Origin: Armatimonadota bacterium
GTDB taxonomy: Bacteria > Armatimonadota > UBA5829 > DTLH01
DNA: 64,000 nt
Direction: 5' to 3'
NCBI GenBank assembly: GCA_039679675.1
Contig: JBDKUN010000033.1
Coordinates: 1-64,000 of the forward strand
Shown in pieces: positions 4,247 through 44,827 of this stretch. The notes beneath the pieces are model-generated. The model was given only the letters and a program-made list of their open reading frames with translations. It did no database searches and was not told the origin of the DNA. The position numbers and the translations under genes were made by a program. The stretch's first letter is position 1. Every line of letters starts with the position of its first letter.

Positions 4247-4312
4247 GATTATATATACGGGCTATTCTAGTAAGAGTTCAGAGTTGATGAGTAAGCATCA
4301 TGCGGAATGTCC

Positions 4313-4388
4313 ACAGCGTCATTTCGGGCTTGACTCAGCATCCAGGAAAAGAATGGACCCTGAAACTCCTTAGTTCAGGGTGATGTCT
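4313..4388 (+). repeat. MITE-like repeat family D, copy D1 (short/diverged), downstream of tRNA-Gln
   Basis: cgtcatttcgggcttgactcagcatccaggaaaagaatggaccctgaa..ttcagggtgatgtc; near-identical core at 41713-41772 and reverse-complement at 36596-36656. Confidence 0.7.
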
Positions 4389-4611
4389 TTCCATCCATGA
4401 TGACGTGTTGGTTATTCAAAATGATATATAATTCCTGCAATAGTGAACTATTACCAATATAGAGCTTCTATGAGAGCCATGGGAGCAGCATAATTGAATT
4501 TTATGGCAGACCAGTTGTATAATTGCCCTGCCTTCTTGTGTATTAAAGGCGCATGCCGGAATTTAGAGGACGATTTACCCCAAAAACAACGATACTTTTC
4601 AGGAGAAAACG

Positions 4612-14609: not shown

Positions 14610-14613
14610 ATTC

Positions 14614-14650
14614 CAGCCGAGACTGGTGTTACCCGCCTCGGCTTCAATAT
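14614..14650 (+). terminator. Candidate intrinsic terminator after ankyrin gene
   Basis: AGCCGAG-(15 nt)-CTCGGCT stem followed by TTCAATAT; weak T-tract. Confidence 0.3.
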
Positions 14651-14738
14651 AAGTATACGGGCACATTCGTGGTTTCTGCTTCGAGAAGGGGTGTATTCCC
14701 GTCTAAGTAACATCCTGTCTTAATAGCGGGCCAGCTTT

Positions 14739-14795
14739 ATGTAGTGGCGGTCTCCGTGCAGGCCATCTACCCCGTGGACCCACCGGACCACGGGG
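14739..14795 (+). repeat. REP-like hairpin repeat family A (TGTAGTGGCCGG..), degenerate copy A1, in convergent spacer
   Basis: gtagtggcggtctccgtgcaggccatc ~ copies at 30356 and 36475; followed by second hairpin CCCCGTGG..CCACGGGG. Confidence 0.6.
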
Positions 14796-14915
14796 AGCTC
14801 TGCAAGAGCCGGACTCTACCATAGCTGCAACTTAGAAACGGAGACTACTTAGATCGCGGGTATTTACCTCTGCGCTTAGTGCCTTTGAATCTCAGCATCC
14901 ATCAGCTTGCCGCGT

Positions 14916-19823: not shown

Positions 19824-19959
19824 GACCTATAGAATTTCGGCTGATTAATTAACGGCCAATCATATATTGTCTGTTGCCGAAACTCTTTAGGTTGATAAAG
19901 GATGAAAAGGAACCCCGCGTTTCATCACTTCAACCCGGAATAAGATATTTCCATATATA

Positions 19960-22041: not shown

Positions 22042-22087
22042 TTAGTTTATCTGAAGTGTGCTCCGGGATTATCTCAGTCCCGGAGCA
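22038..22087 (+). repeat. Repeat family E copy E3 (aattagt..TGCTCCGGGA-loop-TCCCGGAGCA), overlaps flotillin stop; may double as terminator
   Basis: Same stem design as 41648-41677 and 36868-36897; 9-bp GC-rich stem. Confidence 0.6.
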
Positions 22088-22125
22088 TTGTTATCTCAGG
22101 TGCTGAGTCCAGAGTTGCTTAGTTC

Positions 22126-22175
22126 AATGTCATGTTGAACTACCACAACGTCATTCAGAGCTTGACTCGGAAGCT
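22126..22175 (+). repeat. Repeat family D copy D4 (5' half only: atgtcatgttgaactaccacaacgtcattcagagcttgactcgg)
   Basis: 37/37-like match to 41684-41722; truncated at ECF sigma stop codon. Confidence 0.6.
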
Positions 22176-23415
22176 AGGAAGGTTTATGTTCATCTTCTAG
22201 CGTTTCTGCAAATTTCAATCGCTCTGCCCAATTGCCTTTCTGTCGGCTCGTGTCAAGCTGATTAGGATACCAGAGTAGAACTGCCAATATGGCGAATATG
22301 GTCTCCAAGACCGCAGACTCTTCGGCGAATTTCAAGATACTAATGAACGACTGAGTAAAAACATCAGTGTGCGTTAACATTGCATCTGCGATGTGTTCTC
22401 CTTTCAGTAGGTGCTGAGCAACATCAGACATTACATCAGCTGTTTCGACTGATCTTTTTGCAGACATATCCATAGCTTGTGGAAAAGGAACACCGGATGT
22501 CAGAAGGCAAGCCACCGCAGAGCAATAATCCCCCAGCTGACTATTACTTATCGGAGAAATTTTATGGGTAAGTCCTTCGTCTAGAAGTTGAGGGATTATC
22601 TCCAGCATCTTGTGTCGCTGCTTAACTTGGGCGGCGATGTGCAGCAGAGCATTTGCACCAGATGGAATTGCTCGAGTGATTAACAGTGATCGCTCCAAAG
22701 ACCCTACACGTTGGATCATTTCGGAAAGGCTGCCAGCAACAGCTGATAGATCAGTGGCATCTGATTCCCTTGCAATCCGCTCGAGTTCAGCAGGTGAGCC
22801 CGGATTTTCTGCCTTAGCCAACTCTTGCAAGAGATGATTGATGGTTTTTGGCGTGAATTCAATGTCATATTCTTTGTTTTGTCCTAACATTTGAATTACC
22901 TCCTTCTGTAACTTCTGACGTGCTCTTTGCGCAAGCGATTTTACTGCACCCTCACTCCTACCGATTTGGGATCCAATCTCTGAATAACTATAGCCATAGA
23001 TGAGATTGGATTTAAGTACCGTACATTCGATTTCGCTCAACGAAAGCCATACTTCTTCAAGCGCGATACAGGAACTAGACGATACTTGGGTAGCAGATCT
23101 AGCATACAAGTCAAGCATAATGTAGTACAATTCGCCTTGTTTTCTACGTTCGCGGGCAAGTCGCCAACTCCGACGCTTAACAATTTTAGTGAGCCATGGC
23201 CTTAGGCTTGAATTTTTTTCTAGACCTTTGATTGACTTATAAGCCTCAATGAAGCTATCTTGAGCGGCATCCCTAGCGTCCTCGCGATTAAGAAGATACG
23301 AGTAAGCAATGGCGTAAGCCAAGTTTCGGTACTTGTCGACGATCTTACCGAAGGACTCTACATCACCAGTTTTAAATTTTTGAATTAACACTTCATCGTT
23401 CAGGTCCATAAACAT
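22174..23415 (-). CDS. ECF (sigma-70 family) sigma factor with ~230-aa C-terminal extension
   Basis: Region 2 (DARDAAQDSFIEAYKSI..RPWLTKIVKRR) and region 4 HTH (LSEIECTVLKSNLIYGYSYSEIGSQIGRSEGAVKSLAQRAR); C-terminal extension of unknown function, weak GspF/PilC-like pattern. Confidence 0.7.
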   Translation of the reverse strand: MFMDLNDEVLIQKFKTGDVESFGKIVDKYRNLAYAIAYSYLLNREDARDAAQDSFIEAYKSIKGLEKNSSLRPWLTKIVKRRSWRLARERRKQGELYYIMLDLYARSATQVSSSSCIALEEVWLSLSEIECTVLKSNLIYGYSYSEIGSQIGRSEGAVKSLAQRARQKLQKEVIQMLGQNKEYDIEFTPKTINHLLQELAKAENPGSPAELERIARESDATDLSAVAGSLSEMIQRVGSLERSLLITRAIPSGANALLHIAAQVKQRHKMLEIIPQLLDEGLTHKISPISNSQLGDYCSAVACLLTSGVPFPQAMDMSAKRSVETADVMSDVAQHLLKGEHIADAMLTHTDVFTQSFISILKFAEESAVLETIFAILAVLLWYPNQLDTSRQKGNWAERLKFAETLEDEHKPS

Positions 23416-28355: not shown

Positions 28356-28388
28356 GGAAGGCTGATAGCTGAAAACTGAAAGCTGAAA

Positions 28389-29807
28389 ATGAGATTTAGA
28401 CCTGAAGTAAAAGTAGGATTGATTGTCTTTCTGTGTCTCGTTGCCCTGGTGATAATCTATTGGTTCTTCGGAGGACTGGGGCTTCGCGCGGGCAACTATC
28501 AGATATGCGCGGTATTTGACGATGTCATGCGGCTGTCCCGCGGAACTGATGTCAGAATGGCCGGTGTCAGGATAGGCATGGTACAGGACATTACCCTTAC
28601 TGCAGACAAACGAGCGCAGGTTATAATGCTGATAAACAAAAAGTATGAGGGCGCTGTCCCGGAAGACTCCAATGCTCGTGTGACTACCGGAGGAGTGATA
28701 GGTGTCGGCGAGTATTACGTCGAAATCCTGCCGGGTTCAAGCAAAAAAGCCATCGCGAACAATGAATGCCTTCGAACAGTAAGGATGCCGACACTGGATG
28801 ATGTGCTTCCTGACGTGAAAGTGCTGGTCAGCGGTCTGAAGAGGACTATTAACTCGGTCAACGATGTCATAGACAACCCGAAAGTGCGCGCATCTCTTAA
28901 GAATATAGTGGCTAACACGGATGCCACTACTAAAAATATGGCGGAGCTTACGGGTGATATGCGGACGCTTATCGCTCAAAATAGCGCAGAAATAGGGCAG
29001 ATTATTGCCAATGTAGACAGTGCATCGAGAGATTTTGCCGGTCTTAGCCAGGAAGTCGGCCGGATGGTGTCATCAGGAAGGCCGGATATCGATCGAACGC
29101 TCGCGAATGTCAGGTCTGCTTCCGATGACTTTGCATCGTTCAGCAAAAGCCTGCGAAAGACTCTTGAAGGCGGCGGTGCAGAAGACATAAGCGAGCTTGT
29201 TTCAAGCGCAAAGTCGACTGTGGAGAATCTTGAGGCAGTAAGCAAGCAATTGCGGGCGCTCGCGGAAGATGAGACCATTTCGACCGAGATACGGGAGACT
29301 ATCAAAAACGCTTCTGTGGCAGCAAAAGGCGCGGCTGATATTGTTGACCGTGTTGGAAAGATCGTCGGTGTAGGAAAGCAGTCAGCGCGTCCATCCAGGA
29401 CTGCGGAACCGGTGTCTGAGATTGGTTCACAGCTTGATGCGCTTGTTCAGCCCGAAGATAACAGCCTGCGTCTGGATTACAACTACAGGCTTGCAGGCCA
29501 CGGGAACCGGTTCTATCGCCTTGGACTTCTTGATTTTGGTCATAAGCCGAAGCTGAATGCACAGGTCGGCGGAGTCATCGACAATCTGAGCGCTTACAGA
29601 TACGGTATTTATGCTTCCAGAATCGGTATTGGCTATGACCGGATACTCGGCGATAATCTAAGGCTGAGCCTGGATTTATACCATCCGGATGATCCAAGAC
29701 TCGAAACAAAGATGAGGTATGATTTTGCCCCGGATATGGGGATTTGGGCGGGGGCCGACGATATCTTCGACGGCGAATGGATGGTTGGACTTCAGTATCG
29801 AAGATAA
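28389..29807 (+). CDS. mlaD: MCE/MlaD family protein with long C-terminal extension
   Basis: N-terminal TM + MCE domain (VFDDVMRLSRGTDVRMAGVRIGMVQDI), 472 aa. Confidence 0.7.
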   Translation: MRFRPEVKVGLIVFLCLVALVIIYWFFGGLGLRAGNYQICAVFDDVMRLSRGTDVRMAGVRIGMVQDITLTADKRAQVIMLINKKYEGAVPEDSNARVTTGGVIGVGEYYVEILPGSSKKAIANNECLRTVRMPTLDDVLPDVKVLVSGLKRTINSVNDVIDNPKVRASLKNIVANTDATTKNMAELTGDMRTLIAQNSAEIGQIIANVDSASRDFAGLSQEVGRMVSSGRPDIDRTLANVRSASDDFASFSKSLRKTLEGGGAEDISELVSSAKSTVENLEAVSKQLRALAEDETISTEIRETIKNASVAAKGAADIVDRVGKIVGVGKQSARPSRTAEPVSEIGSQLDALVQPEDNSLRLDYNYRLAGHGNRFYRLGLLDFGHKPKLNAQVGGVIDNLSAYRYGIYASRIGIGYDRILGDNLRLSLDLYHPDDPRLETKMRYDFAPDMGIWAGADDIFDGEWMVGLQYRR

Positions 29808-30355: not shown

Positions 30356-30399
30356 TGTAGTGGCCGGGCTCTGTCCCGGCCAGAGGCATCAAAGATGCC
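30356..30399 (+). repeat. REP-like hairpin repeat family A copy A2 (between rplI and dnaB)
   Basis: tgtagtggccgggctctgtcccggcca + second hairpin GGCATCaaaGATGCC. Confidence 0.65.
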
Positions 30400-31882: not shown

Positions 31883-33172
31883 ATGCGTCAAAACAACCTG
31901 AACGTCCTGGTTATCGGAAGCGGCGGCAGAGAACATGCCCTGGTATGGAAAATAGCGAAAAGCCCGCGCGTCGACAAGGTCTTTTGCGCGCCTGGGAATG
32001 CCGGGACTGCTGCGATTGGTGAGAATCTTCCAATAAAACCTACAGAATTCGACCGGCTGATAGAGGTCTCAAAGGAAAAGAAGATCGATCTTGTTGTAGT
32101 CGGCCCGGAGACTCCGCTTATTGCGGGAATAGTAGATGCGTTCAGTGCTACAGGCATACCCGTGTTTGGCCCGACCAGGCTTGGCGCGCAGCTTGAAGGC
32201 AGCAAAGTCTTTACAAAAGAGCTTCTCCTTGAGAACAACATCCCTACAGGTGGTTTTGCTGCGTTCGACGATCCTGAAAAGGCAATTGCAGATGTTAAAA
32301 AGCATTTCGCAGGTGAGAGTAAGCCGATAGTCATAAAGGCAGACGGTGAAGCCGCTGGAAAAGGCGTGATCATCGCAAATACCGAGGCTGAGGCTCTTGA
32401 TGCGGTCGATATGATTATGGTCAAGAAGGCATTCGGGGCGTCAGGCAATAAGATCATCATCGAAGAGTTTCTGGAAGGCCAGGAAGCGTCCATTATGGCT
32501 TTTGTAAGCGGCGGCGCAGTTCAGGGTATGCTTCCGGCGCAGGACTACAAGCGGGCGCAGGATAGCGACAAAGGGCCGAACACCGGCGGAATGGGGTGTT
32601 ATTCGTGCGTTCCAGCCGTTACTCCTGAGATTTATGATACTGTGATCGAGAAGATAATCCGCCCGACGATCAAAGGGCTTGCCGCGAAGGGGATCGATTA
32701 CTGCGGGGTGCTCTACGCCGGTGTAATATTGACCGCTGATGGCCCCAAACTTCTTGAGTACAACTGCCGGTTAGGTGATCCCGAAACAGAGGTCGTGCTG
32801 CCGCTTCTTGAGACTGATCTGGTGGACATTATCGAGGCGGCAATCGAGCACCGACTCGACGGAATCGAGATAAAATGGTACAATAAAAAGGCAGTATGCG
32901 TGGTTCTGGCCTCAAAAGGTTACCCGGGAAGTTACGATACAGGATTTCCGATCAGCGGCATTGCAAATGCCGAGTCTATCGGGGCGATTGTTTTCCATGC
33001 CGGAACAAAACTTGTCGATGGCCGGGTGGTGACATCCGGCGGTCGGGTGCTCGGCGTCACGGCAACAGGCGGGACGTTTCGGGATGCGGTCGCTGCTGCG
33101 TACGAGGCAGTCGAAAAGATCAGCTTCGAAGGAATGACATATCGCAAGGATATTGGAGCGAGGGTTCTCTAG
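31883..33172 (+). CDS. purD: Phosphoribosylamine--glycine ligase
   Basis: MRQNNLNVLVIGSGGREHALVWKIAKSP.. canonical PurD. Confidence 0.9.
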   Translation: MRQNNLNVLVIGSGGREHALVWKIAKSPRVDKVFCAPGNAGTAAIGENLPIKPTEFDRLIEVSKEKKIDLVVVGPETPLIAGIVDAFSATGIPVFGPTRLGAQLEGSKVFTKELLLENNIPTGGFAAFDDPEKAIADVKKHFAGESKPIVIKADGEAAGKGVIIANTEAEALDAVDMIMVKKAFGASGNKIIIEEFLEGQEASIMAFVSGGAVQGMLPAQDYKRAQDSDKGPNTGGMGCYSCVPAVTPEIYDTVIEKIIRPTIKGLAAKGIDYCGVLYAGVILTADGPKLLEYNCRLGDPETEVVLPLLETDLVDIIEAAIEHRLDGIEIKWYNKKAVCVVLASKGYPGSYDTGFPISGIANAESIGAIVFHAGTKLVDGRVVTSGGRVLGVTATGGTFRDAVAAAYEAVEKISFEGMTYRKDIGARVL

Positions 33173-33631
33173 GTGCATAAGGTAGCAGTATTAATGGGCA
33201 GTAAATCGGACATGCAGGTTATGCAGCCTGCAGCGGACGTGCTCATTCAGAAGTTTGGTATTGAGAGCGAAATACATGTAATCTCCGCGCACAGGACACC
33301 TCACAAAGTTGCTGAATTTGCTTCAAATGCTGCCGCTAACGGATTTGATGTGATAATCGCCGGAGCAGGGATGGCAGCTCACCTCGCAGGTGTGCTCGCC
33401 GCGTTTACCCCGCTTCCGGTCATTGGTGTTCCGATCAAAAGTGCATCTTTCGAAGGAATGGACGCACTTTTGTCGATGGTCCAGATGCCGTCCGGCGTGC
33501 CGGTCGCAACGGTTGCTGTAAACGGTGCAAAAAACGCAGGAATTCTGGCTGCGCAGATCATTGGAGTCGGCGACCCAGAGGTTAGGAAGAAAATCGAGGA
33601 TTACAAGCGAACGTTGGCGGAAGCTAAGTAG
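33173..33631 (+). CDS. purE: N5-carboxyaminoimidazole ribonucleotide mutase (GTG start)
   Basis: KVAVLMGSKSDMQVM..AHRTPHK..IIAGAGMAAHLAG canonical PurE. Confidence 0.85.
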   Translation: MHKVAVLMGSKSDMQVMQPAADVLIQKFGIESEIHVISAHRTPHKVAEFASNAAANGFDVIIAGAGMAAHLAGVLAAFTPLPVIGVPIKSASFEGMDALLSMVQMPSGVPVATVAVNGAKNAGILAAQIIGVGDPEVRKKIEDYKRTLAEAK

Positions 33632-33638
33632 GTGATCC

Positions 33639-35159
33639 ATGCCCGGTCGGTCTCGTTGGCTAGATTATCTTTTTATATTGGTTGTGGCTGGGGCATTGAT
33701 CTATCAGCTATTTGTGCCTCCTATCATTGGCTTGGCCAATAGCGGCGATTTTGAGAGGCTGATGAGGACCATCGGGCTGAGCTACCAGACAGATAATTGC
33801 TACGACAAGTATAATCTATTCGTAAACCGGGAGTTCATGTGGGACAGCAAATTTGATCCAAGCTATCCGACGTCAGAGCTACTCTTCCTAGGTGGAGGAT
33901 CACTGCTCAACGGTGCGGTGTCCAGTGACGATACATTTGACATTCGTGGACTTGGCTTGGTTCATGCTATCACGTTCCTGCTGGTTACAGCGCTACTGGT
34001 TCTGTATGCGAGATCGCTGACTGCTTGGCGGAGGCTGTTGCTGTACGCGCTTGTGGCATTCATTTTTACTGATATTGGGTACGTTGCGTATTTTAACTCG
34101 CTCTATTCGGAGCCGTCGTCGCTTATATTTTTCTGTGCTGCCGTTGTATTCGCGCTGGCTGGAATAGCGAAAGGGCAGTCGAACGACCGTGGCTGGCTTT
34201 TCATAATAGGCTACTTTGCGGCCTCTGCACTGTTCGTGACGGCGAAGTTCCAGAATGCGTTTCTTGGGTTTCCGATGGCGTTCTTTGGCTGGCGGCTCTA
34301 CGGGATGGTTACTCCAGCAAGCAAAAGGCTTATGCCGCGGTTTCGATGGCTTGGTGTCGGGCTTGTAATTCTGCTCACGCTTGCTTCGGCCGGGTTCTAT
34401 GGGCTTTACACAGAGCTTTCTGCTCACGCCAGGCCCGCAAATCTATATGATACCGTGTTTGAGGAGATTCTGGGACACTCGAAGACTCCTGAAGCAGACG
34501 CGGCAGCTTTGGGATTGCCCGTGTCGCTTGCCAAGTATGCTGGTACATCAGCTTACTCGACGGATGTCCCTGCGGAAGTGAAATCGGAGATTGTTTCCAG
34601 AGTGGGTTACACTAACGTAATAAAGTTTTATTTAACCCATCCTGGGCGGCTGTGGAACTTGGCTGGGCGCAGCGCAGCGAGTTCACTTTCCATGCGCCCG
34701 AGCTATTTGGGGAATTTGGAACCATCGGCTGTTGACCAAGATAAGCTGGCAGGTCAGCAGATAAATCCGTCGGCCCTGCCGGATGATTTTCGAAGCCGCA
34801 AGTTCTCCGCATGGAGTACGATTAAGAAAAACTGTGTTCCGAAGACGCTGTGGTTCCTTGGCTTGTTCCTTGGCGTGAATGTTGCGACTGTTGTTCTAAA
34901 ATGGAGATATTTCGATAAGATGGTAAAGGATTATAAGATCAGTGAGTTGCACGCTGTGCTGATTCTGATGGCGGTGTTGCAGTTCTTCATCGTTATAATC
35001 GGTGAAGGTGAGCACGAAATAGTGAAGCATCTTTTCCTCTTTAACCTGTTGAGCGAGATATGCTTTATCTTTCTCATAATGTATATGGTGAGCGGCGTCG
35101 CCTATCTGTGGCAGCGAAAGACGATGCGCCCACGGCAATTGGTGATTCAGAATGATTGA
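33639..35159 (+). CDS. Uncharacterised polytopic membrane protein (506 aa) embedded in pur operon
   Basis: Many hydrophobic helices; 8-nt gap after purE and 8-nt overlap with purB indicate co-transcription/translational coupling. Confidence 0.5.
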   Translation: MPGRSRWLDYLFILVVAGALIYQLFVPPIIGLANSGDFERLMRTIGLSYQTDNCYDKYNLFVNREFMWDSKFDPSYPTSELLFLGGGSLLNGAVSSDDTFDIRGLGLVHAITFLLVTALLVLYARSLTAWRRLLLYALVAFIFTDIGYVAYFNSLYSEPSSLIFFCAAVVFALAGIAKGQSNDRGWLFIIGYFAASALFVTAKFQNAFLGFPMAFFGWRLYGMVTPASKRLMPRFRWLGVGLVILLTLASAGFYGLYTELSAHARPANLYDTVFEEILGHSKTPEADAAALGLPVSLAKYAGTSAYSTDVPAEVKSEIVSRVGYTNVIKFYLTHPGRLWNLAGRSAASSLSMRPSYLGNLEPSAVDQDKLAGQQINPSALPDDFRSRKFSAWSTIKKNCVPKTLWFLGLFLGVNVATVVLKWRYFDKMVKDYKISELHAVLILMAVLQFFIVIIGEGEHEIVKHLFLFNLLSEICFIFLIMYMVSGVAYLWQRKTMRPRQLVIQND

Positions 35160-36444
35160 TAGATATTCTCTCCCGAAAATGAGAGCCGTCTGGAGCGAGG
35201 AGAACAAGTTCCGGACATGGCTCGATGTCGAAATAGCCGTATGTGAGGCACAAGAGCACTTCGGCAATATCCCCAAAGGGACTTCCGAGAAGGTGAAAGC
35301 CGGTGCGAAGTTCTCCGTAGAACGGATCGAGAAAATTGAGCAGGAAACGCATCATGACCTGATAGCGTTCGTCAAAGCCGTCACGGAAAACCTCGGAGAC
35401 GAAGGAAAATATGTCCACTATGGAGTGACAAGTTACGATATAGAGGACACGGCGATGGCTATAAGGATACGGCAGTCAGCCGACCTGATTTTGGAAGACC
35501 TCGAAGCCCTTAAGACAGTCATCGGCAAGCTCGCGAGAGAGCATAAGTCGACAGTGATGATCGGAAGGACGCATGGAGTCCACGCCGAGCCGATCACTTT
35601 CGGTTTTAAGATGGCTGTATGGTATTCCCAGATAATGCGCGACATCGAGCGGGTCAAAGCAGCGAGAGAAGCGATCAGCTACGGCAAAATTTCCGGCGCA
35701 GTAGGGATATTCGGGAATATCGACCCCAAGATCGAAGCATTTGTATGTGAGAGGTTGGGGCTCAAGGTAGCGCCCGTATCTACGCAGATCATCCAGCGCG
35801 ACAGGCATGCGCAGTTTATGACAGCACTTGGGATAGCTGCATCATCCGCAGAGAACTTCGCAACCGAGATGAGGAACCTCCAGCGGACTGAGATACTCGA
35901 AGTCCAGGAAATGTTCCTTCCGGGACAGCGTGGATCGTCCGCAATGCCGCACAAGAGGAACCCATGGCGGTTCGAGACGATTGTCGGGCTTGCTAGAGTA
36001 GTCCGCACGAACGTCATCCCAGCTATGGAGAACGTAACCTCCTGGCATGAGCGCGATAACACCAACTCAGCCTGCGAGCGGATTATTATCCCTGATAGCT
36101 GCCAGGCAACAGATTTTCTCCTTCAGTCCCTCACCAAGCTGATGACCCGGCTTGAGATCAACACTGAAAATATGCAGAAGAACCTCACGAAGATGGGCCA
36201 GCTTGTTTTCTCCGAGCACGTGCTCCTTGCTCTTGTAAAGAAGGGCATGACGAGGGAAGAAGGCTACAAGGTCTGCCAGAGAAACGCCGCAAAGTGCTGG
36301 GACGAAGGAGTATCTTTCAGGCAGGCGCTTGAGAAGGACGAAGACGTAAAGCGGCTGCTTTCAGACGAAGAACTCGCAAAGTGCTTCGACCTGGAGCACC
36401 ACCTGCGAAACGTCGAGACGATTTTGGAGAGATTAGGGATTTAG
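35152..36444 (+). CDS. purB: Adenylosuccinate lyase
   Basis: MIDRYSLPKMRAVWSEENKFRTWLDVE.. and SSAMPHKRNP signature. Confidence 0.9.
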   Translation: MIDRYSLPKMRAVWSEENKFRTWLDVEIAVCEAQEHFGNIPKGTSEKVKAGAKFSVERIEKIEQETHHDLIAFVKAVTENLGDEGKYVHYGVTSYDIEDTAMAIRIRQSADLILEDLEALKTVIGKLAREHKSTVMIGRTHGVHAEPITFGFKMAVWYSQIMRDIERVKAAREAISYGKISGAVGIFGNIDPKIEAFVCERLGLKVAPVSTQIIQRDRHAQFMTALGIAASSAENFATEMRNLQRTEILEVQEMFLPGQRGSSAMPHKRNPWRFETIVGLARVVRTNVIPAMENVTSWHERDNTNSACERIIIPDSCQATDFLLQSLTKLMTRLEINTENMQKNLTKMGQLVFSEHVLLALVKKGMTREEGYKVCQRNAAKCWDEGVSFRQALEKDEDVKRLLSDEELAKCFDLEHHLRNVETILERLGI

Positions 36445-36474
36445 CTTTTAATCACGAAAGCACGAAATAAGAAA

Positions 36475-36520
36475 TGTAGTGGCCGGTCTCCGTGCCGGCC
36501 ATCGACCTCGTAGAGGTCGG
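36475..36520 (+). repeat. REP-like hairpin repeat family A copy A3
   Basis: tgtagtggccggtctccgtgccggccatc + hairpin GACCTCgtagGAGGTC. Confidence 0.65.
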
Positions 36521-36529
36521 ACATGAAAA

Positions 36530-36660
36530 TAGCTATCAGCAATCAGCCGTCAGCTATCAGTAAATATGTCACTCTGAGTAACCAATACGACACCCTGAAC
36601 TTGATTCAGGGTCCATTCTTTTCCTGGATTCCGAGTCAAGCTCGGAATGACGTGGTGAAT
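36530..36660 (-). repeat. MITE-like repeat family D copy D3 (full length, inverted orientation)
   Basis: Reverse complement aligns to 41690-41845 across core (..gagcttgactcggaatccaggaaaagaatggaccctgaatcaagttcagggtg..) and 3' tail (tcagagtgacat..tgacggctga..agctgatagctat). Confidence 0.7.
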
Positions 36661-36854
36661 TAGTGGAGACTTGTGCTGTTTGCTTTTTAGTAATGGTGCT
36701 TCAAATTGATATGTTTTGTTGCATCGGACTGCTTGCTGCCGATGCGGGCCGGTAGGCCCGAAAAACAATGAGACGGCATATGTTGTTTCTCGACACCTGC
36801 GGTGTCGGCTTCGGTAGCAAGCGAACCGAAGCAAATTAAACGCGAAATAGGAAT

Positions 36855-36900
36855 TAGTGGAGACTCATGCTTCGGGACGAAAAGCGGTTCCGAAGCATAA
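36855..36900 (+). repeat. Repeat family E copy E2 (aattagtggagactca-TGCTTCGGGACGAaaagcGGTTCCGAAGCA)
   Basis: Near-identical to 41636-41680; a truncated 5' copy aattagtggagacttgtgct at 36658-36683. Confidence 0.65.
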
Positions 36901-36933
36901 TGATAGTGCAAGAAAAACAAAGCGAGGAGCCGA

Positions 36934-37176
36934 ATGGCAAAGGTAAAAGTCTACGTAACGTTAAAGCCGACCCTTCTGGATGCACAGGGCCGCGTGGTTA
37001 TGACCGCGCTTGAGAACCTGGGGCATACAAACATCGAAAACGTGAGGATTGGCAAGTATATCGAGGTCGAGGTTGCCGATAACGGCCGGAATATCAACGA
37101 GCAGATGGATGAAATCTGCCGTAATCTGCTCTCCAACCCGGTTATCGAGAACTACCGCTATGAGGTGACGGAGTGA
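36934..37176 (+). CDS. purS: FGAM synthase subunit PurS
   Basis: 80-aa [19 protein letters not shown].. canonical PurS. Confidence 0.85.
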
Positions 37177-37862
37177 AATTCGGTGTAGTAGTCTTCCCAG
37201 GCTCGAACTGCGACCAGGATGCATACTACGCCGTCCGCGACGTCCTGAAGCAGCCTGTGGAGTATATATGGCATCAGGATAAAGACCTGAAAGGCTCCGA
37301 TTGTATCATCCTGCCGGGCGGGTTCTCTTATGGTGACTACCTTAGAACAGGCGCTGTAGCCCGGTTTTCCCCGGTCATGGAAGCTGTGCAGGAGCATGCG
37401 GCAAAGGGCGGCTATATCATCGGGATATGTAACGGCTTCCAGATCCTCTGCGAGGCACATCTTCTTCCGGGCGCGCTTGTATCGAACACTGGACTCAAGT
37501 TCATATGCAAGTATGTTAATCTTCAACCCGAAAACTTGAACACTCCGTGGACGAATAAATGCAATGAAGGCCAGGCGCTCCGTATCCCAATCGCCCACCA
37601 GGGCGGCAACTACACCTGCGACCCAGAGACTCTTCAGCGAATAGAAGACAATGGGCAGGTTATCCTCCGCTATTGCGATGAGCGAGGAGTCGTATCACCT
37701 GAAGTGAACCCGAACGGTTCGTTGAACAATATCGCAGGGATAACCAACGAACAGGGTAACGTCGCTGGGATGATGCCGCATCCTGAGAGAGCGGTCGAGA
37801 AGATTCTCGGTAGCGACGACGGTTTAGCAATTTTAAGATCTGTTATTGAGTGGGCTGGATAA
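37173..37862 (+). CDS. purQ: FGAM synthase glutaminase subunit PurQ
   Basis: [16 protein letters not shown].. catalytic Cys in GICNGFQ; triad His/Glu MPHPER. Confidence 0.9.
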
Positions 37863-40159
37863 TGATAAAAGAACCAGGAAGCAAAGTAGTCGATAAGAAC
37901 ACACTACCCATACCTGCGGAAGTCTACCGCGAGATGGGGTTATCTGATGAGGAATACAAAAAGGTCGTAGGTGTCCTCGGCAGGCATCCTACATACACCG
38001 AGGTCGGGATGTATGCCGTTATGTGGAGCGAACACTGCGGCTATAAGTACTCTCGGCCGGTGCTCCGGCTGTTCAAGAAGTACAAAGAGGCGCTGGACGG
38101 CGAAGGGCTCGAAAATGCCGGTGTAATCGACATCGGCGACGGGCTCGGCATTGTCATGAAGATGGAAACTCACAACCATCCATCCGCTGTGGAGCCGTTC
38201 CAGGGCGCAGCGACCGGGGTAGGGGGCATTTTAAGAGACATCTTCACGATGGGCGCCCGTCCAATCGCATGCCTCAATTCTCTCAGGTTCGGCTCGCTCG
38301 ATGATCCTCATAACAAATACCTTTTTGAGAATGTCGTGGCAGGCATCGCTCATTACGGCAACTGCGTAGGCGTTCCGACTATTGGCGGTGAGGTTGTTTT
38401 TGATGAGTGTTACTCCGGCAACTGCCTCGTAAACGCGATGTCCGCCGGAATCATCAAAACGGATGAAATCGCCTCGGCCTGCGCGAAGGGAGTCGGAAAC
38501 GCTGTTCTGTATGTTGGTTCCAGGACAGGATGCGACGGTATCCACGGCGCGACATTTGCCTCAGTCGAACTTGGGCCTGATTCGGAGTCAAGAAGACCGA
38601 ATGTACAGATCGGCGACCCGTTCCAGGAGAAATTGCTTATCGAAGCGACTCTTGAAGCCCTGAAGACCGGCTGCATAGTCGGAATCCAGGATATGGGAGC
38701 TGCCGGTATCACCTGCGGATCGTGCGAGACAGCTGCAAAGGGCCGGTCAGGGATGGAAATAGACGTCCTCAAGGTCCCGCGCCGTCAGGAAGGGATGACA
38801 CCTTACGAAGTCATGCTTTCAGAGTCGCAGGAGAGGATGCTCGCGATAGTCGAAAAAGGCAAAGAGGACGAAGTCGCGTCTGTATTCAAGAAATGGGGGC
38901 TGAGCGCGGTAGTCATAGGTCATGTCATAGACAGCGATTTAGTGCGAGTCTTCGAAGGCGATCAGTTAGTGGCCGAAATCCCCGCAAAATCCCTTGCGGA
39001 TGATGCGCCGACTTATTATCTTGAAACAGAAGAGCCTGATTATCTGGCTGAAGTCCGAGAGTTTGATCTGTCGAAGATACCTGAGCCTAAAGACTATAAC
39101 GAAGCGCTCGAAAAACTGCTCGCATCGCCTTCTATTTCAAGTAAAGAGTGGGTCTACAGGCAGTATGACCACATGGTCCAGACAAATACGGCCGTTATGC
39201 CGGGATCGGATGCCGCCGCGCTCCGAATAAGAGGCACGAAGAAGGCTATCGCGCTTGTCGCGGACTGTAATGGCCGGTATTGCTACCTCGATCCGTTCGT
39301 GGGTGCTCAGATAGCCGTCGCAGAAGCCGCAAGGAACCTTGCTTGTACCGGTGCGAAGGCTTTGGGTGTTACGGACTGTGTGAGCTTCGGCAATCCTGAA
39401 AAGCCGCAGGTGTTCTGGCAGTTCAAGAGAGCAATTGAGGGTATGGCCGAGGCCTGCGAAGCATTTGGAACCCCTGTCGTGAGCGGAAACGTGAGTTTCT
39501 ACAACGAGACGCCGGTAAGTGCGATCTACCCGACACCTGTAGTCGGTATGCTTGGGCTGATCGAAGACGCTGAAAAGCACTGCACAAGTGAATTCAAGCA
39601 TGAAGGTGATGTCATAGCACTCCTTTCGGGGAAGAGAGCTGCATCGGATAATGATTCCGATGCGGCAGTATGCGCTGCGAACGATCTCGGCGGAACTGAG
39701 TATCTTAAAGTAATGCACAACGTTGTAGCAGGAACTCCCCCGGCCATCAATATGGACGCAGAGAAACGGCTTCATGCTGCTCTCATAGAGGTAATACAGG
39801 AAGGCTATGTTTCTTCGGCGCATGACTGCTCGGACGGCGGGCTTGCTTTAGCTGTCGCAGAATCGGCAATTGCAGGTAATCTAGGTGCAGAGATCAGCGT
39901 GACCTCTGATTGCGGAGCGGCTGTCGCACTCTTTGGAGAAGCTCAGTCGCGGGTCGTCGTTTCCCTCTCGCCGGATATGCTTGGTGAGATGCGGGAGATA
40001 GTCGACAAGCATAACGTAGAGTGCACGATACTTGGAAAAGTCCACGGAAACAGGCTGAAGGTCGCCGTGAATGGTGTGAATGTGATCGACAGGCCTGTCG
40101 AGCGAGTTGCAAAAATCTGGAAGAACGCAATTCCTGATAGAATGGAAGGCCGGGATTGA
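37862..40159 (+). CDS. purL: FGAM synthase large subunit PurL (start ATG overlaps purQ TAA; alt 37850)
   Basis: Canonical PurL (ETHNHPSAVEPFQGAATGVGG.., two AIR-synthase-like modules). Confidence 0.9.
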   Translation: MIKEPGSKVVDKNTLPIPAEVYREMGLSDEEYKKVVGVLGRHPTYTEVGMYAVMWSEHCGYKYSRPVLRLFKKYKEALDGEGLENAGVIDIGDGLGIVMKMETHNHPSAVEPFQGAATGVGGILRDIFTMGARPIACLNSLRFGSLDDPHNKYLFENVVAGIAHYGNCVGVPTIGGEVVFDECYSGNCLVNAMSAGIIKTDEIASACAKGVGNAVLYVGSRTGCDGIHGATFASVELGPDSESRRPNVQIGDPFQEKLLIEATLEALKTGCIVGIQDMGAAGITCGSCETAAKGRSGMEIDVLKVPRRQEGMTPYEVMLSESQERMLAIVEKGKEDEVASVFKKWGLSAVVIGHVIDSDLVRVFEGDQLVAEIPAKSLADDAPTYYLETEEPDYLAEVREFDLSKIPEPKDYNEALEKLLASPSISSKEWVYRQYDHMVQTNTAVMPGSDAAALRIRGTKKAIALVADCNGRYCYLDPFVGAQIAVAEAARNLACTGAKALGVTDCVSFGNPEKPQVFWQFKRAIEGMAEACEAFGTPVVSGNVSFYNETPVSAIYPTPVVGMLGLIEDAEKHCTSEFKHEGDVIALLSGKRAASDNDSDAAVCAANDLGGTEYLKVMHNVVAGTPPAINMDAEKRLHAALIEVIQEGYVSSAHDCSDGGLALAVAESAIAGNLGAEISVTSDCGAAVALFGEAQSRVVVSLSPDMLGEMREIVDKHNVECTILGKVHGNRLKVAVNGVNVIDRPVERVAKIWKNAIPDRMEGRD

Positions 40160-41607
40160 ACTTAGCAGTACCAGAGATCAAAGAAGAGTGCGGCGTAACC
40201 GGGATATTCGCGCCTGGTGAGGAGGCTGGTAGGTTAGCTTTCTTCAGCCTCTTTGCACTCCAGCATAGAGGCCAAGAGAGCGCCGGTATAGCTGTTGCTG
40301 ACGGCAGCAAAATCACCGTCCATAAGGATATGGGGCTTGTCACTCAGGTCTTTACTGAGGATGTGCTCTCAAAACTCGGCGGCGGGATTGCCATAGGCCA
40401 CACCAGGTATTCAACAACGGGATCGAGTATTTTGCGAAATGTGCAGCCCATTGAATGTACCCGGAAGAACAATGAGTGCTTCGCGCTCGCTCACAACGGA
40501 GATCTCGTCAATGCCGCGGAAGTGCGCGCAGAGATGGAAGCAGAAGGTGTCGAGTTTGAAACGACGAATGACACTGAAGTAATAGCAAAAATTATCGCTA
40601 ACAGCTCCGCGGAGACTATCGAAGAAGCTATAACTGAGGCGATGCAGCGGATCAAAGGCGCGTATGCGGTCGTAATCCTGACAAAAGACAAGTTGATCGC
40701 GATTAGAGATGCCTTTGGAATACGCCCGCTTTGTATAGGCAAGATCAACGGCGAGCACTACATTGTCGCTTCGGAAACATGTGCCTTAAACGTCATCGGC
40801 GCGAGCTTTACACGCGCCGTCGAACCCGGCGAGATGATCGTGATTGACGAGAGCGGCGTAAAAGAGATTCAGGCGATACCGATGGAAAGGCATGCGCTCT
40901 GTATATTTGAGTTCATCTACTTCGCCAGACCGGACAGTATGATGTACGGAAGGACGCTTCACGAGGCGAGGAGGAGGATGGGACATGAGCTCGCGAGAGA
41001 GCATCCCGTCCCGAATGCACACATCGTTTTCCCGATACCGGACACCGGCACACCGGCGGCCATCGGGTTTGCGGAAGCATCCAGGATCCCGTATGCAGAG
41101 GGAGTCATCAAAAACCGCTATATCCACCGGACTTTCATCCAGCCGAACCAGAGGATGCGTGACCTTGGTGTCAGGATGAAGCTGACGCCATTAAAAGAAA
41201 GCCTTGCAGGGCGAAGAGTCGTTATGGTAGAGGACAGTATCGTGCGTGGCACAACGACCGGGCAGACGGTAAAGATGATCCGGGATGCGGGAGCAGTTGA
41301 GGTCCATGTAAGGATTGCAGCGCCGCCCTATAAGTGGCCTTGTTTCTACGGTATCGACACGGCTTCCCAGAATGAACTTATCGCTGCGAAGCTGTCGGTA
41401 GAAGAGATCAGGGACTACATAGGCGCAGACAGTTTGGGCTATTTGAGCATACAGGGGCTGACGAGGGCTATCGGTGTCAAAAAAGAGAATTTTTGCCGGG
41501 CGTGCCTGGATGGAAAATACCCGATTCCGATCCCAGATGCCGCAAAGCTCCAAAAGTTTATCTTCGAGGACAAAAAGTCGGGCGATAAAGCTAAGAAAGA
41601 TATCTAG
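40156..41607 (+). CDS. purF: Amidophosphoribosyltransferase (with short propeptide before catalytic Cys)
   Basis: EECGVTGIF N-terminal nucleophile; PRTase motif VVMVEDSIVRGTT. Confidence 0.9.
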   Translation: MNLAVPEIKEECGVTGIFAPGEEAGRLAFFSLFALQHRGQESAGIAVADGSKITVHKDMGLVTQVFTEDVLSKLGGGIAIGHTRYSTTGSSILRNVQPIECTRKNNECFALAHNGDLVNAAEVRAEMEAEGVEFETTNDTEVIAKIIANSSAETIEEAITEAMQRIKGAYAVVILTKDKLIAIRDAFGIRPLCIGKINGEHYIVASETCALNVIGASFTRAVEPGEMIVIDESGVKEIQAIPMERHALCIFEFIYFARPDSMMYGRTLHEARRRMGHELAREHPVPNAHIVFPIPDTGTPAAIGFAEASRIPYAEGVIKNRYIHRTFIQPNQRMRDLGVRMKLTPLKESLAGRRVVMVEDSIVRGTTTGQTVKMIRDAGAVEVHVRIAAPPYKWPCFYGIDTASQNELIAAKLSVEEIRDYIGADSLGYLSIQGLTRAIGVKKENFCRACLDGKYPIPIPDAAKLQKFIFEDKKSGDKAKKDI

Positions 41608-41635
41608 TTGTTTTTTTATCATGTTAACTAAGCAC

Positions 41636-41680
41636 TAGTGGATGTCGTGCTTCGGGACGAACTGCGGTCCCGAAGCATAG
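41636..41680 (+). repeat. Repeat family E copy E1 (ctagtggatgtcg-TGCTTCGGGACGAactgcGGTCCCGAAGCA)
   Basis: 10-bp perfect stem; forms composite with D2 immediately downstream. Confidence 0.65.
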
Positions 41681-41683
41681 GGT

Positions 41684-41845
41684 ATGTCATGTTGGACTAC
41701 CACAACGTCATGCTGAGCTTGACTCAGCATCCAGGAAAAGAATGGACCCTGAATCAAGTTCAGGGTGACGTCGTTGTTGTTCAGAGTTACATTTTTCTCT
41801 ACTGACGGCTGAAAGCTAATAGCTGACAGCTATAAACCCTCGACT
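41684..41845 (+). repeat. MITE-like repeat family D copy D2 (full length ~160 bp) in purF|purM spacer
   Basis: atgtcatgttggactaccacaacgtcatgctgagcttgactcagcatccaggaaaagaatggaccctgaatcaagttcagggtgacgtcg...tcagagttacat..tgacggctga..; TIR-like ATGTCA / TTACAT-TGACGT ends. Confidence 0.7.
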
Positions 41846-41857
41846 GAGGAGGTCATA

Positions 41858-42889
41858 TTGAACGAAGAGATTACCTACCGCAATGCGGGTGTAGATATAG
41901 ATGCCGGTATAGAGACCGTGCAGAGGATGAAAGAGAGCGTCAGAGCGACATACACAGACTCTGTACTAACGGATGTCGGTTCGTTCGGCGGGATGTTCAA
42001 GCTCGGCGATGACATGATGGAGCCTGTGCTGGTCTCCAGCATCGACGGTGTTGGCACAAAGGTCAAAATTGCAGTTGCGATGGGCAAGCACAATACCATC
42101 GGCAAAGACCTCGTAAACCACAGCGTGAATGATATTCTCGTCCAGGGCGCAAAACCGCTTTTCTTCCTCGATTATTATGCGACAAGCCCTCTCGACCCTA
42201 TAGTAGCCTCTGATGTCGTCAGAGGCGCAGCTGAAGCCTGCAAAGAGATCGGTTGCGTGCTGATCGGCGGCGAGACGGCTGAGATGCCGGGTGTCTACAT
42301 TGAAGGTGAGTATGACCTTGCCGGATGCATAGTCGGAGCTGTAGATAGAGCGAAGATAATCGATGGTTCTAAGGTCATGGCCGGGGATATGATCGTCGGG
42401 CTTGCATCGAGCGGACTGCATACGAACGGCTATTCACTTGCCCGAAAGGTTTTGCTTGATCACGGCGGGCTAAAGCTCGATCAGTACATCCCAGAAATAG
42501 GGAAAATCCTGGGTGATGAACTCCTGGAGACTCACAGGTGCTATTTTAAAGCCGTCTGGGAGGTCATGAAGGAATATGATGTGCATGCGATGGCGCACAT
42601 AACGGGCGGCGGGTTCTATGACAATCTGCCGAGAGTAATTCCTGAAGACTGCCAGATTACGCTGGAGCGCCGCAGTTGGCCCGCACCGCCTATCTTTAAG
42701 CTAATACAAGATACTGGCGGAATCGCGGATTACGAGATGTACCGCACGTTCAATATGGGAATCGGTCTGGTCATGATCGTAGCGAAACACAGAGCCGTAG
42801 AAATCGTAGACCAGCTTGAGAAGCTCGGCGAGCGTGCATGGATAATCGGCGAAGTCCGAAAAGGCGGGAGAGAGGTAGCTGTCCTGTGA
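41858..42889 (+). CDS. purM: Phosphoribosylformylglycinamidine cyclo-ligase
   Basis: YRNAGVDIDAG.., DLAGCIVGAV, canonical AIR synthase. Confidence 0.9.
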   Translation: MNEEITYRNAGVDIDAGIETVQRMKESVRATYTDSVLTDVGSFGGMFKLGDDMMEPVLVSSIDGVGTKVKIAVAMGKHNTIGKDLVNHSVNDILVQGAKPLFFLDYYATSPLDPIVASDVVRGAAEACKEIGCVLIGGETAEMPGVYIEGEYDLAGCIVGAVDRAKIIDGSKVMAGDMIVGLASSGLHTNGYSLARKVLLDHGGLKLDQYIPEIGKILGDELLETHRCYFKAVWEVMKEYDVHAMAHITGGGFYDNLPRVIPEDCQITLERRSWPAPPIFKLIQDTGGIADYEMYRTFNMGIGLVMIVAKHRAVEIVDQLEKLGERAWIIGEVRKGGREVAVL

Positions 42890-43524
42890 ATCAGGTAAGG
42901 ATAGCGGTGCTGGTGTCCGGTCATGGGCGCGGAACGAACATGCAGGCGATTATAGATGCCTGCAAAGACGGCAAAATAACCGGTGAGGTGGTTGTCGTCA
43001 TAGGTGTTCGCCCGGACGCTCCCGCAATGGAGCGCGCTGACGCATCATGCGTCGAAACAGCGGTCGTGAACCCTAAAGAATATAACTCGGCGGGGGATTA
43101 TGACCTTGCGCTTCTCGATGTGCTTCAGTCGCGACGCATCGATCTCATTTGTCTTGCTGGCTATATGAGAAAAGTCGGCCAGCCGGTAATAGATGCTTAC
43201 CGAGACCGGATTATGAATATCCACCCTGCGCTTATCCCGATGTTTTTCGGCAAAGGGATGTATGGAAGCCATGTTCATGAGGCAGCGATAGAGCGGGGAG
43301 TGAAATACTCCGGTTGTACTGTGCATTTTGTAGACGAAGATTACGATACGGGGCCGATAATTGCCCAGACTGTCGTGCCGGTTATGGAAGACGATACGCC
43401 TGAATCTCTTGCGGCGCGGATATTGATTGAGGAACACAAGACCTATGCTGCAGCCATACAGCTTTTTGCCGAAGGCAGGTTGAAAGTGGTTGGACGAAGG
43501 GTTTTGGTAGAGAAAAGAAACTAA
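42886..43524 (+). CDS. purN: Phosphoribosylglycinamide formyltransferase (GTG start overlapping purM stop, GTGA)
   Basis: RIAVLVSGHGRGTNMQAII.., NIHPALIP, canonical PurN. Confidence 0.85.
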   Translation: MNQVRIAVLVSGHGRGTNMQAIIDACKDGKITGEVVVVIGVRPDAPAMERADASCVETAVVNPKEYNSAGDYDLALLDVLQSRRIDLICLAGYMRKVGQPVIDAYRDRIMNIHPALIPMFFGKGMYGSHVHEAAIERGVKYSGCTVHFVDEDYDTGPIIAQTVVPVMEDDTPESLAARILIEEHKTYAAAIQLFAEGRLKVVGRRVLVEKRN

Positions 43525-44258
43525 AGTATAAGTCTTTGAAGAACGGCTGCCCGTCTGGGCGGCTGTTCTATATCTTTATCGAGTGCCGTGCGGAGCACTT
43601 TAACGATTTTGGGATCGAACTGTGTGCCGGAGCAGCGCTCTATCTCGTCCAGCGCTTTTTCCTGTGACAGCGCGTCCCGCCATGGAACATCGGTCGTAAG
43701 TATATCGAAAGCCTCTGCAATAGCGATAATCCTTGCACCAAGCGGTATTTCCTCTCCTGCAAGCCCATCGGGATAGCCTTCTCCATTGTAATGCTCGTGG
43801 TGGTGCTTGATCATGGGAACTGCACCGCTGAGACCTTCGACTTTGCTCAAAATCCTGACTGCTACCATCGAATGCCGCCGCATTATATCGAATTCTTCAT
43901 CTGTAAGCCGGCCAAATTTGTTTAATATTTTGCTCGATACCGCAACTTTTCCGATGTCGTGAAGGCTCGCTGCATAATCAATATCTCTGGCATTCTCGGA
44001 GGATATATTACCAAGCGCGGATACGATTGCAGATGCGTAATGCCTGACCCGCTCGCTGTGACCTTCGGCGGTTGAGTCATGCTCGCCTGCTGCCGCGACG
44101 AGCGCGTTGATCGTCTGGCGATAGAATTTATCCATTCCGTTAAATTCGGTGCCGCTGTTCATCTTTGACCGGTTTCCTTTGCTTTTAGTAAATAGGTTAC
44201 TCACATATTCGGCTGAAAACTGTCCTCTCGTTAGATATTGGATTGAGCGATTTACCAA
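43521..44258 (-). CDS. HD-GYP domain protein (c-di-GMP phosphodiesterase family)
   Basis: HDIGK ... HHHEHYNGEGYPDGL motifs. Confidence 0.75.
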   Translation of the reverse strand: MVNRSIQYLTRGQFSAEYVSNLFTKSKGNRSKMNSGTEFNGMDKFYRQTINALVAAAGEHDSTAEGHSERVRHYASAIVSALGNISSENARDIDYAASLHDIGKVAVSSKILNKFGRLTDEEFDIMRRHSMVAVRILSKVEGLSGAVPMIKHHHEHYNGEGYPDGLAGEEIPLGARIIAIAEAFDILTTDVPWRDALSQEKALDEIERCSGTQFDPKIVKVLRTALDKDIEQPPRRAAVLQRLIL

Positions 44259-44827
44259 TAATTTTGCATTGAGTTTCAGGTGTCATCGGAGGCTCTTCTG
44301 GAAGAATATTTGCTAATAACATGTATGCGATTAATTGTTATATGGATGATAATATTAGTTCAAACTAAGCAATAAAACAGGTATAATTACTGGGGAAAGG
44401 TGACGTGCGTTCGGATTGACATTGACACTGAACGGCGTGCCGTGATACCATCGAAACGATGAGTTTAGGTGTATAAAGTGCATTCCAGCACAGGATATTA
44501 CGCAGGCTATCATAGACATCTCCGTTCTGCTATTCCAGAAGATTTCCATAGAAGTGAGTTCGTTTGGGAACCGGCAGCATATTGCTGAGCGTAATATTAA
44601 ATGGCGGGCAGACTGTTCAGTATTTATTCGCCAAATGAATAAAGTAGCCTAAAGACGCAGGACGTATAGTCAATAATTGATATGTATGGCTGGTGATTTT
44701 AGTGAGTTCGGCAGTACACTGCGAGATTTTCGGCAACAGACAATATATGACTGGCCGTTAATTAATCAGCCGAAAATCTATAGGTAGGGGGAATGAAGCT
44801 GTATGGTAAACAGAGGTAGGGGGAAAG

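Follow-up and report, generated by a model that had tools for sequence, protein, structure and literature searches.

The window analysed here is a 64,000-nucleotide (64-kb) stretch of contig JBDKUN010000033.1 from an Armatimonadota bacterium (assembly GCA_039679675.1). It contains a co-directional pur cluster comprising purD, purE, a WsfD-like gene, purB, purS, purQ, purL, purF, purM and purN, in which purB and purS are separated by a spacer of 489 bp. This spacer holds repeat elements of at least three families, namely a GTAG-tagged repetitive extragenic palindrome (REP) doublet (element A), a dimer of CGTC-tagged REPs (element D), and hairpins with GCWTCGG stems (element E and the X/Y composite). 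The order of elements from 5' to 3' is A, a heptamer tract, D on the minus strand, a fragment of E (E'), the X/Y composite, E, and a GAGGAG motif, as follows.

36445-36933, no strand, purB-purS spacer, a cluster of palindromic repeat elements, 489 bp
36476-36519, plus strand, element A, GTAG-tagged REP doublet by sequence, with copies at 14739 and 30356
36476-36479, plus strand, GTAG tag of A
36480-36501, plus strand, hairpin 1 of A, TGGCCGG / loop TCTCCGTG / CCGGCCA
36503-36519, plus strand, hairpin 2 of A, CGACCTC-GTA-GAGGTCG
36531-36560, minus strand, heptamer tract found with Tandem Repeats Finder (TRF), approximately 4.3 copies of AGCTATC, equal to (GCTGAnn)n on the minus strand
36568-36661, minus strand, element D, head-to-head dimer of CGTC-tagged REP hairpins (covariance model R1, 102 bits; core 36588-36652)
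36588-36615, plus strand, D unit with the tag mutated to CGAC
36625-36652, minus strand, D unit, CGTC-AT-TCCGAG-CTTGA-CTCGGA-AT-CCA
36657-36676, plus strand, E', 20-nt 5' fragment of E (AATTAGTGGAGACTTGTGCT)
36712-36842, no strand, X/Y palindromic composite of approximately 125 nt, two inverted copies of a two-hairpin unit about a 31-nt centre; the left copy is GCATCGG..CCGATGC + GGGCCggtaGGCCC and the right copy is CGACACCtgcGGTGTCG + GCTTCGG..CCGAAGC
36852-36899, plus strand, element E, TTAGTGGAGAC head and 12-bp hairpin ATGCTTCGGGAC / GAAAAGCG / GTTCCGAAGCAT
36924-36929, plus strand, GAGGAG, Shine-Dalgarno-like motif (read from the sequence) that lies 4 nt upstream of the purS ATG

The elements reported in the first-pass annotation were recovered at the same places by sequence reading and repeat matches. 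It had described a third copy of A (36474-36503 matches 14739-14767 at 93% and 30356-30382 at 89%), an inverted copy of D (36562-36657 against 41701-41796; 86% over 96 nt), a truncated 5' end of E (36657-36671 equals 36851-36865, 15/15) and a full E ending 35 nt before the purS ATG (measured at 34-35 nt). The four further strong hairpins that it listed are exact in sequence and are present in the minimum free energy fold, but they are not independent, as together they form the single palindromic composite X/Y. Its general anatomy, a nest of stacked repeats splitting the operon, holds, but A and D had not been recognised as members of published REP superfamilies. The repeats are dispersed in the window, with three copies of A, four of D and three of E. 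The complete 489-nt spacer folds at -184.4 kcal/mol on the plus strand, relative to -140 +/- 6.7 for dinucleotide shuffles (z = -6.7), and the minus strand gives z = -5.5 by the same comparison.

GTAG-tagged REPs are defined by a GTAG tag beside a 6-13 bp hairpin, in multiple copies and often as dimers (PMC3733652). In A, GTAG lies directly 5' of a GC-rich hairpin of 7-8 bp, with the tags on the outside, and the tags of the three copies are at 36476, 30358 and 14741. The copy at 30357(+)/30406(-) is a dimer with GTAG at both outer ends. In a related genome (locus L006, 18496/18564) the sequence GTAG-GGGCAGG-TCTCCGTG-CCTGCCC has the tag and loop of the window copies and covarying stems. Judged by its sequence, A is of the GTAG-tagged REP/REPIN kind. 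As in these elements, the tagged hairpin is partnered with a second hairpin, and as in both GTAG REPs and E. coli BIMEs (bacterial interspersed mosaic elements), A lies approximately 30-50 nt downstream of stop codons. Unlike these, A has a long loop (8 nt, TCTCCGTG) and a variable second hairpin, whose tag has degenerated in the copy of the spacer. In other genomes GTAG REPs are linked to RAYT tyrosine transposases (Y1 HUH), the gene for which is flanked by the same REPs, although their recognition or mobilisation by these enzymes is not demonstrated in PMC3733652 or PMC11893778. The copy at 14739-14800, a degenerate GTAG REP doublet, is located in an 829-bp intergenic region (14610-15438) that follows an ankyrin-repeat gene and contains no open reading frame (ORF) of 90 aa or more.

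Element D comprises two inverted hairpins of approximately 25 nt with CGTC outside (CGTC-AT-GCTGAG-CTTGA-CTCAGC-AT-CCA ... TGG-A-CCCTGAA-TCAAG-TTCAGGG-T-GACG). The CGTC-tagged REPs of Di Nocera, De Gregorio & Rocco (2013; PMC3733652) carry a CGTC or TGTC (or CCTC) tag, a stem of 8-9 bp starting from A-T, a loop of 4-5 nt and a CCA tail. They are mostly head-to-head dimers whose spacers have complementary ends, and include Neisseria dRS3/NTS and Rickettsia RPE-4/-6 (PMC3733652). Unpaired CGTC tags were found in D at 41706-41709, at 41770-41767 (minus) and at 36652-36649 (minus), and the fourth unit reads CGAC at 36588-36591. Stem, loop and tail also agree, with ATGCTGAG/CTTGA/CTCAGCAT + CCA and ATTCCGAG/CTTGA/CTCGGAAT + CCA; in the partner units (ACCCTGAA/..../TTCAGGGT + CCA) the second pair is C-G, not T-A. 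Like the published elements, D has stems of 8 bp that open with an A-T pair, loops of 5 nt and a short spacer whose ends are complementary, and it occurs as dispersed head-to-head dimers. On these features D is a member of the CGTC-tagged REP superfamily, matching the 2013 definition point for point. It departs from published CGTC REPs in that one of the two tags of the spacer copy is mutated, and its Armatimonadota-like host phylum is in neither PMC3733652 nor PMC11893778.

The copies of D in the window form a graded series, from intact (41697-41790; core 41706-41770), through mutated in the tag (36588-36652), to decayed (4308-4405 and 22140-22180), which suggests an old, slowly eroding population. 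The decayed dimer at 4308-4405 lies 65 nt downstream of a tRNA gene (4173-4243); its first stem is broken, its second loop is enlarged and its tag is mutated. Between copies the D stems change by compensatory substitutions (GC/CG/TA) while loop and tag remain fixed; in 33 distinct units, 95% of free stem positions are paired, compared with 74% in shuffles. D is also present twice in locus L013 and in more than 120 metagenome contigs, always with the tags outside. The latter count is a lower bound obtained by matching a 21-mer from one D hairpin, which also matched two IMG/VR contigs. The covariance model recovered the full dimer in nearly all of 82 searched metagenome loci (G+C 0.28-0.71) and on a Novosphingobium megaplasmid. 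D was not found to be tied to any particular family of neighbouring genes, those at its flanks being diverse, unrelated housekeeping genes. D occurs in both orientations, with 14 tandem, 12 convergent and 11 divergent contexts, and no target-site duplications were found around 65 dimers. Some D-type dimers lie within long ORFs (L088 475-1062; L162 1-480; L089; L083). One in an HD-domain protein reads ...RHPELDSGSEF..., which recalls the in-frame REP/RPE insertions of Rickettsia and others. A cloverleaf or tRNA-like identity for D was considered and rejected, as its pair of conserved hairpins is a single unit present in two inverted copies, and the score of the reverse strand is almost as high.

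A second nest of the same kind fills the purF-purM spacer, as follows.

41608-41857, plus strand, purF-purM spacer, 250 bp
41634-41679, copy of E
41706-41770, intact D core
41802-41833, heptamer tract

The heptamer tract adjoins D in both nests, and 36531-36560 is an inverted match to 41802-41824. Tracts of three to five (GCTGAnn)n heptamers occur in the window at 28362-28389, 36531-36560 and 41802-41833; period-7 CTGA runs have an expectation of 0 in shuffles. Further tracts are present in pur spacers of L004 (9311-9386) and L013 (12602-12629, 12904-12924 and 18389-18409), although the loci of relatives were all chosen through purB, so that the association of heptamers with pur genes is biased. 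Over 30 nt, the copy in L013 shares 97% identity with window positions 41802-41831. Several of the runs end 0-35 nt upstream of start codons (a MlaD-like gene, purM, purS and purL).

The copy of E in the second nest is 89-91% identical to that in the purB-purS spacer (91% for 36868-36899 against 41648-41679), and a covarying relative is found at 22051-22090. E (stem GCTTCGGGAC) and the hairpins of X/Y share the GCWTCGG stem type. The arms of X/Y (36719-36745 and 36808-36834) are 27 nt long and 78% complementary, and as DNA the composite folds as a single large structure (z = -6.15). E and X/Y were also considered as GTAG REPs and rejected, since the tag is TTAG, CTAG or GTTG and is not adjacent to the stem. 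X/Y and the D dimer resemble ERIC and MITE-type (miniature inverted-repeat transposable element) long, imperfect palindromes in that both fold as single long hairpins, X/Y with 27-nt inverted ends, and in that both lie in transcribed spacers in either orientation. Unlike in those palindromes, no target-site duplication was found for D dimers, and we know of no transposase-bearing parent element that matches X/Y.

By PurB, the source organism is placed among Armatimonadota/Abditibacteriota-like metagenome-assembled genomes, with L001 (87%, the best match) and L002 (83%) as its closest relatives. The first-pass annotation had expected short spacers where the elements are absent. The purB-purS spacer was found to be 28-72 bp in six of twelve Armatimonadota relatives, and in five others it contains an unrelated inserted gene. 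That of L001 codes for a repeat protein of 505 aa, those of L004, L006 and L013 code for predicted small or membrane proteins, and that of L023 is purC. The spacer of the twelfth, L007, contains a 97-aa ORF and two hairpins. None of the window spacer sequence was found in the closest relatives, and in a BLAST search of both nests against 80 orthologous loci the only matches were D and a heptamer tract, in L013 only. The purF-purM spacer, at 250 bp in the window, is 2-54 bp in 8/11 relatives, of which the closest two have 15-21 bp, and longer in L023 (104 bp), L012 (134 bp) and L022 (1249 bp). The left X/Y unit (36716-36763; GCATCGG..CCGATGC + GGGCC..GGCCC) is approximately 42/50 (~84%) identical to L007 4946-4995, where the double hairpin stands at the same position upstream of purS; L007 is a distant relative, its PurB being only 78% identical to that of the window. 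No further copy of this double hairpin was found in 1.9 Mb of fetched loci beyond the window and L007. It may be an inherited feature, or else a further REP family common to the two genomes.

An exact-protein look-up of window PurB, made for strain variants of the spacer, returned no record. The sole public contig encoding the exact window PurS is L081 (Logan SRR15035648; 4.9 kb), which is 100% identical to window 36805-41671. Its ends lie at the CGACACC/GCTTCGG hairpins (36805) and the E hairpin (41671). This short-read contig thus breaks within hairpins, as expected because repeated palindromes fragment assemblies.

Hairpins of the D type are also found beside genes for a family of small nucleases. 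Chenal et al. (2025; PMC11893778) gave the name Ssn to a GIY-YIG nuclease of approximately 95 aa that acts on single-stranded DNA. SsnA of N. meningitidis binds the NTS hairpin (CGTCATTCCCGCG..GCGGGAATC) as single-stranded DNA only and cuts a few nt upstream, and its gene lies between two such hairpins (NTS-ssnA-NTS); an insertion sequence-like or domesticated origin of Ssn has been proposed, not demonstrated (PMC11893778). In five loci selected by hairpin, small GIY-YIG genes (95-109 aa, PF01541) were located between two D-type hairpins. In independent loci selected by protein, hairpins were within 300 bp of the GIY-YIG gene in 7/7. The density of D-type units was 5.0 per kb within 300 bp of an Ssn-family gene and 0.14 per kb elsewhere in the flanking sequence, a 36-fold enrichment. 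The collected proteins belong to the Ssn family, as hhalign aligns them with the gonococcal protein at a probability of 99.9%. Flanking of ssn (cd10448-type GIY-YIG) genes by the hairpin is thus seen in other genomes, with CTGAAC-TTGW-type units bracketing Ssn-family genes in L101, L124, L141, L165, L193, L205, L213, L215, L216, L219, L222 and L223. Ssn homologues are flanked by their own CGTC REP variants in four of the six cultured-isolate replicons inspected (N. aromaticivorans, S. meliloti, A. caviae and N. gonorrhoeae). The association between GIY-YIG gene and CGTC hairpin is already published (PMC11893778) and is not new here.

CGTC-tagged REPs are now known as Ssn-related motifs (SRMs; PMC11893778). 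The degenerate SRM search string published with Ssn, as transcribed (HGTCWYN(0-2)YYVSBRHN(0-5)WNVSBRGN(0-2)RNCYNB), matches NTS but not the Ssn-flanking units of S. meliloti, N. aromaticivorans and L205. It is unmatched at the Ssn-gene loci L205, L213, L216, L219, L222, L223, L225 and L226, which lie in sequences labelled Cyanobacteriota and in those of Sulfuricurvum, Sulfurovum, Desulfobacterales, S. meliloti and N. aromaticivorans. As transcribed, the string is narrower than the set of hairpins that flank Ssn genes, and it probably under-counts Ssn-related motifs. Nor does it match the stem and loop type (N)CTGAAC-TTGW-GTTCAG(N) of D. The main text of the Ssn paper does not mention the 2013 CGTC classification (PMC11893778); the CGTC REPs without a transposase of 2013 and the SRM of 2025 appear to be the same thing.

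On this evidence the spacer is probably a BIME-like cluster of extragenic palindromes that has accreted in an insertion-tolerant site. It is probably ordinary selfish or semi-domesticated DNA and not a dedicated purine-control RNA, because its elements (GTAG- and CGTC-tagged REP hairpins and a third, local family) are of kinds already known and are missing from close relatives. Of the two alternatives offered in the first-pass annotation, the evidence favours the one in which selfish DNA accumulates where it is tolerated. It had also proposed comparing orthologous spacers, a shared spacer of conserved structure being taken as the mark of a functional RNA. No conserved orthologous spacer was found, and the reading as an insertion nest therefore stands. 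Like E. coli BIMEs, several palindromes are clustered in one transcribed intergenic spacer. Like the intergenic mosaic elements of Neisseria (NIME) and Rhizobium (RIME), the spacer is a mosaic stack of different small repeat families, including dRS3/CGTC-type hairpins, that fills an intergenic gap; its host is another, as are its remaining repeat families. NIMEs lie beside genes for surface proteins, whereas the nest here splits a biosynthetic operon.

Several points weigh against this interpretation. Among the 48 window ORFs scanned, neither a RAYT (Y1_Tnp) gene nor an Ssn (GIY-YIG) gene was found, so that, unlike the published Ssn/SRM systems, the 64-kb window has no visible ssn gene. The D units of the window do not match the SRM string. 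That Ssn mobilises CGTC REPs has been hypothesised in the literature and is not a demonstrated reaction (PMC11893778). E and the X/Y unit have no canonical GTAG or CGTC tag, and their known copies are local to the window, plus the one in L007. The conserved position of the X + GGGCC double hairpin in L007 could reflect function rather than junk.

Elements of the kinds of A and D act at the level of DNA; a single-stranded hairpin with its unpaired tag is the site recognised by a dedicated nuclease, which for the CGTC type is Ssn (PMC11893778). If the spacer is such a nest, copies would be spread or maintained by such enzymes, encoded elsewhere in the genome or formerly present, and would then persist and decay where they are harmless. 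The likeliest consequence for the pur operon would be a passive one. The hairpins would be transcribed through within a purD...purN message ending at the strong terminator-like hairpin after purN, and purS would keep its own ribosome-binding site, which is intact. In E. coli, REP and BIME elements have been shown to shield upstream mRNA against 3' exonucleases or to reduce expression downstream slightly. Here the stable hairpins may, at most, do likewise, protecting purD-purB or lowering the expression of the genes that follow. Read-through, with at most a REP-like stabilisation of the upstream message, would be the most economical reading. The features of the cluster relevant to its transcription are as follows.

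31883-33172, purD
33173-33631, purE
33639-35159, WsfD-like glycan hexose transferase gene (NF051875, 6e-108)
35152-36444, purB (TIGR00928, 8e-154)
36934-37176, purS (PurS, 4e-29)
after purS, ending at 41607 (end of purF), purQ, purL and purF
41858-42889, purM
42838-43524, purN
43540-43569, 13-bp terminator-like hairpin 3' of purN, marking the operon end

The spacer, or part of it, might instead be a functional cis-regulatory RNA, such as an attenuator, a platform for processing or a leader that binds protein, with control of purS-purN apart from that of purD-purB. The predicted structure is very stable, the X + GGGCC double hairpin of approximately 50 nt is conserved in position in L007, and (GCTGAnn)n tracts recur in three genomes within pur spacers, frequently at 0-35 nt upstream of starts, although the choice of all loci through purB biases the last of these. 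A D hairpin followed by CCATTCTTTT (36592-36612 + CCATTCTTTT) gives one weak terminator-like score on the sense strand, which is within the chance expectation of 0.8 +/- 1.0; the other spacer hairpins have no T-runs, and so do not have the form of intrinsic terminators. An Rfam search, suggested in the first-pass annotation, identified no relevant family. At the gathering score the only match in the whole window was a tRNA, and the spacer has no covariance-model match to the structured RNAs of Rfam, the purine riboswitch included, even at E <= 10, where the top matches (E = 0.22 and 2.5) are to unrelated families. The closest relatives, L001 and L002, have none of the spacer sequence, and in other places its components are found next to unrelated genes, in either orientation. 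We consider a regulatory RNA unlikely. A division of the cluster into two transcription units is judged less probable again. In this case a factor-dependent or U-tract-less terminator after purB would be combined with an unrecognised promoter in AT-rich sequence (36677-36720 or 36833-36850) driving purS onward. The placement of the GTAG REP 32 nt after the purB stop and of E 27 nt after the purF stop is typical of REPs and would suit it. No sigma-70-like promoter scored in the spacer, although promoters of the host phylum may follow another consensus. The hairpins lack U-tracts, the 28-72 bp separation in relatives is typical of one operon, and the only clear terminator-like hairpin follows purN.

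That the spacer encodes a small minus-strand protein is highly improbable. Open frames are present (36550-36834, 94 aa; 36687-36920, 77 aa), but both start with TTG, neither has a Pfam match, both cross repeats that are found in either orientation in other intergenic regions, and they are absent from all relatives; the earlier description of the spacer as non-coding agrees with this. A broader proposal would combine two claims: that the CTGAAC-TTGW hairpin is a large Ssn-recognition class outside the published SRM motif, extending Ssn/SRM to Armatimonadota, and that part of the nest is under selection, with the X + GGGCC double hairpin and (GCTGAnn)n as lineage-specific cis elements of pur mRNA or DNA, perhaps bound by protein. 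These are unlikely, although slightly less so than the regulatory RNA.

Other features of the window were recorded alongside the nests. The WsfD-like gene between purE and purB shares 8 nt with the start of purB. L002 has this gene in the same place (40% identity), and L001 and most other relatives do not. Junctions of the pur operon in this Armatimonadota-like clade often house foreign genes. A 62-nt inverted repeat pair (19825-19886 and 44724-44785; 95% complementary) has copies approximately 75 and 45 nt upstream of plus-strand genes for an SPFH/Band-7 protein and a polysaccharide-export protein, respectively. This pair had no match in Rfam, and could be another repeat family or a common regulatory site. 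A minus-strand gene for an RNase H / RVT_3-type protein (61441-62052; PF13456, 1e-25) adjoins a gene for a CT398-like zinc-ribbon coiled-coil protein and is unrelated to the nest.

The nest shows that both of the classical REP superfamilies occur in a phylum that has been little studied (Armatimonadota/Abditibacteriota-like), and that REPs can accumulate within an essential biosynthetic operon with gene order undisturbed. Palindrome nests of this kind break short-read assemblies, as in the Logan contig, yield spurious ORFs, and mimic structured regulatory RNAs in fold-energy screens. For work on Ssn, it may be useful that the hairpin (C/T)GTCA-YNCTGAAC-TTGW-GTTCAGNR-TCC is widespread and flanks Ssn genes in several phyla while lying outside the SRM string.

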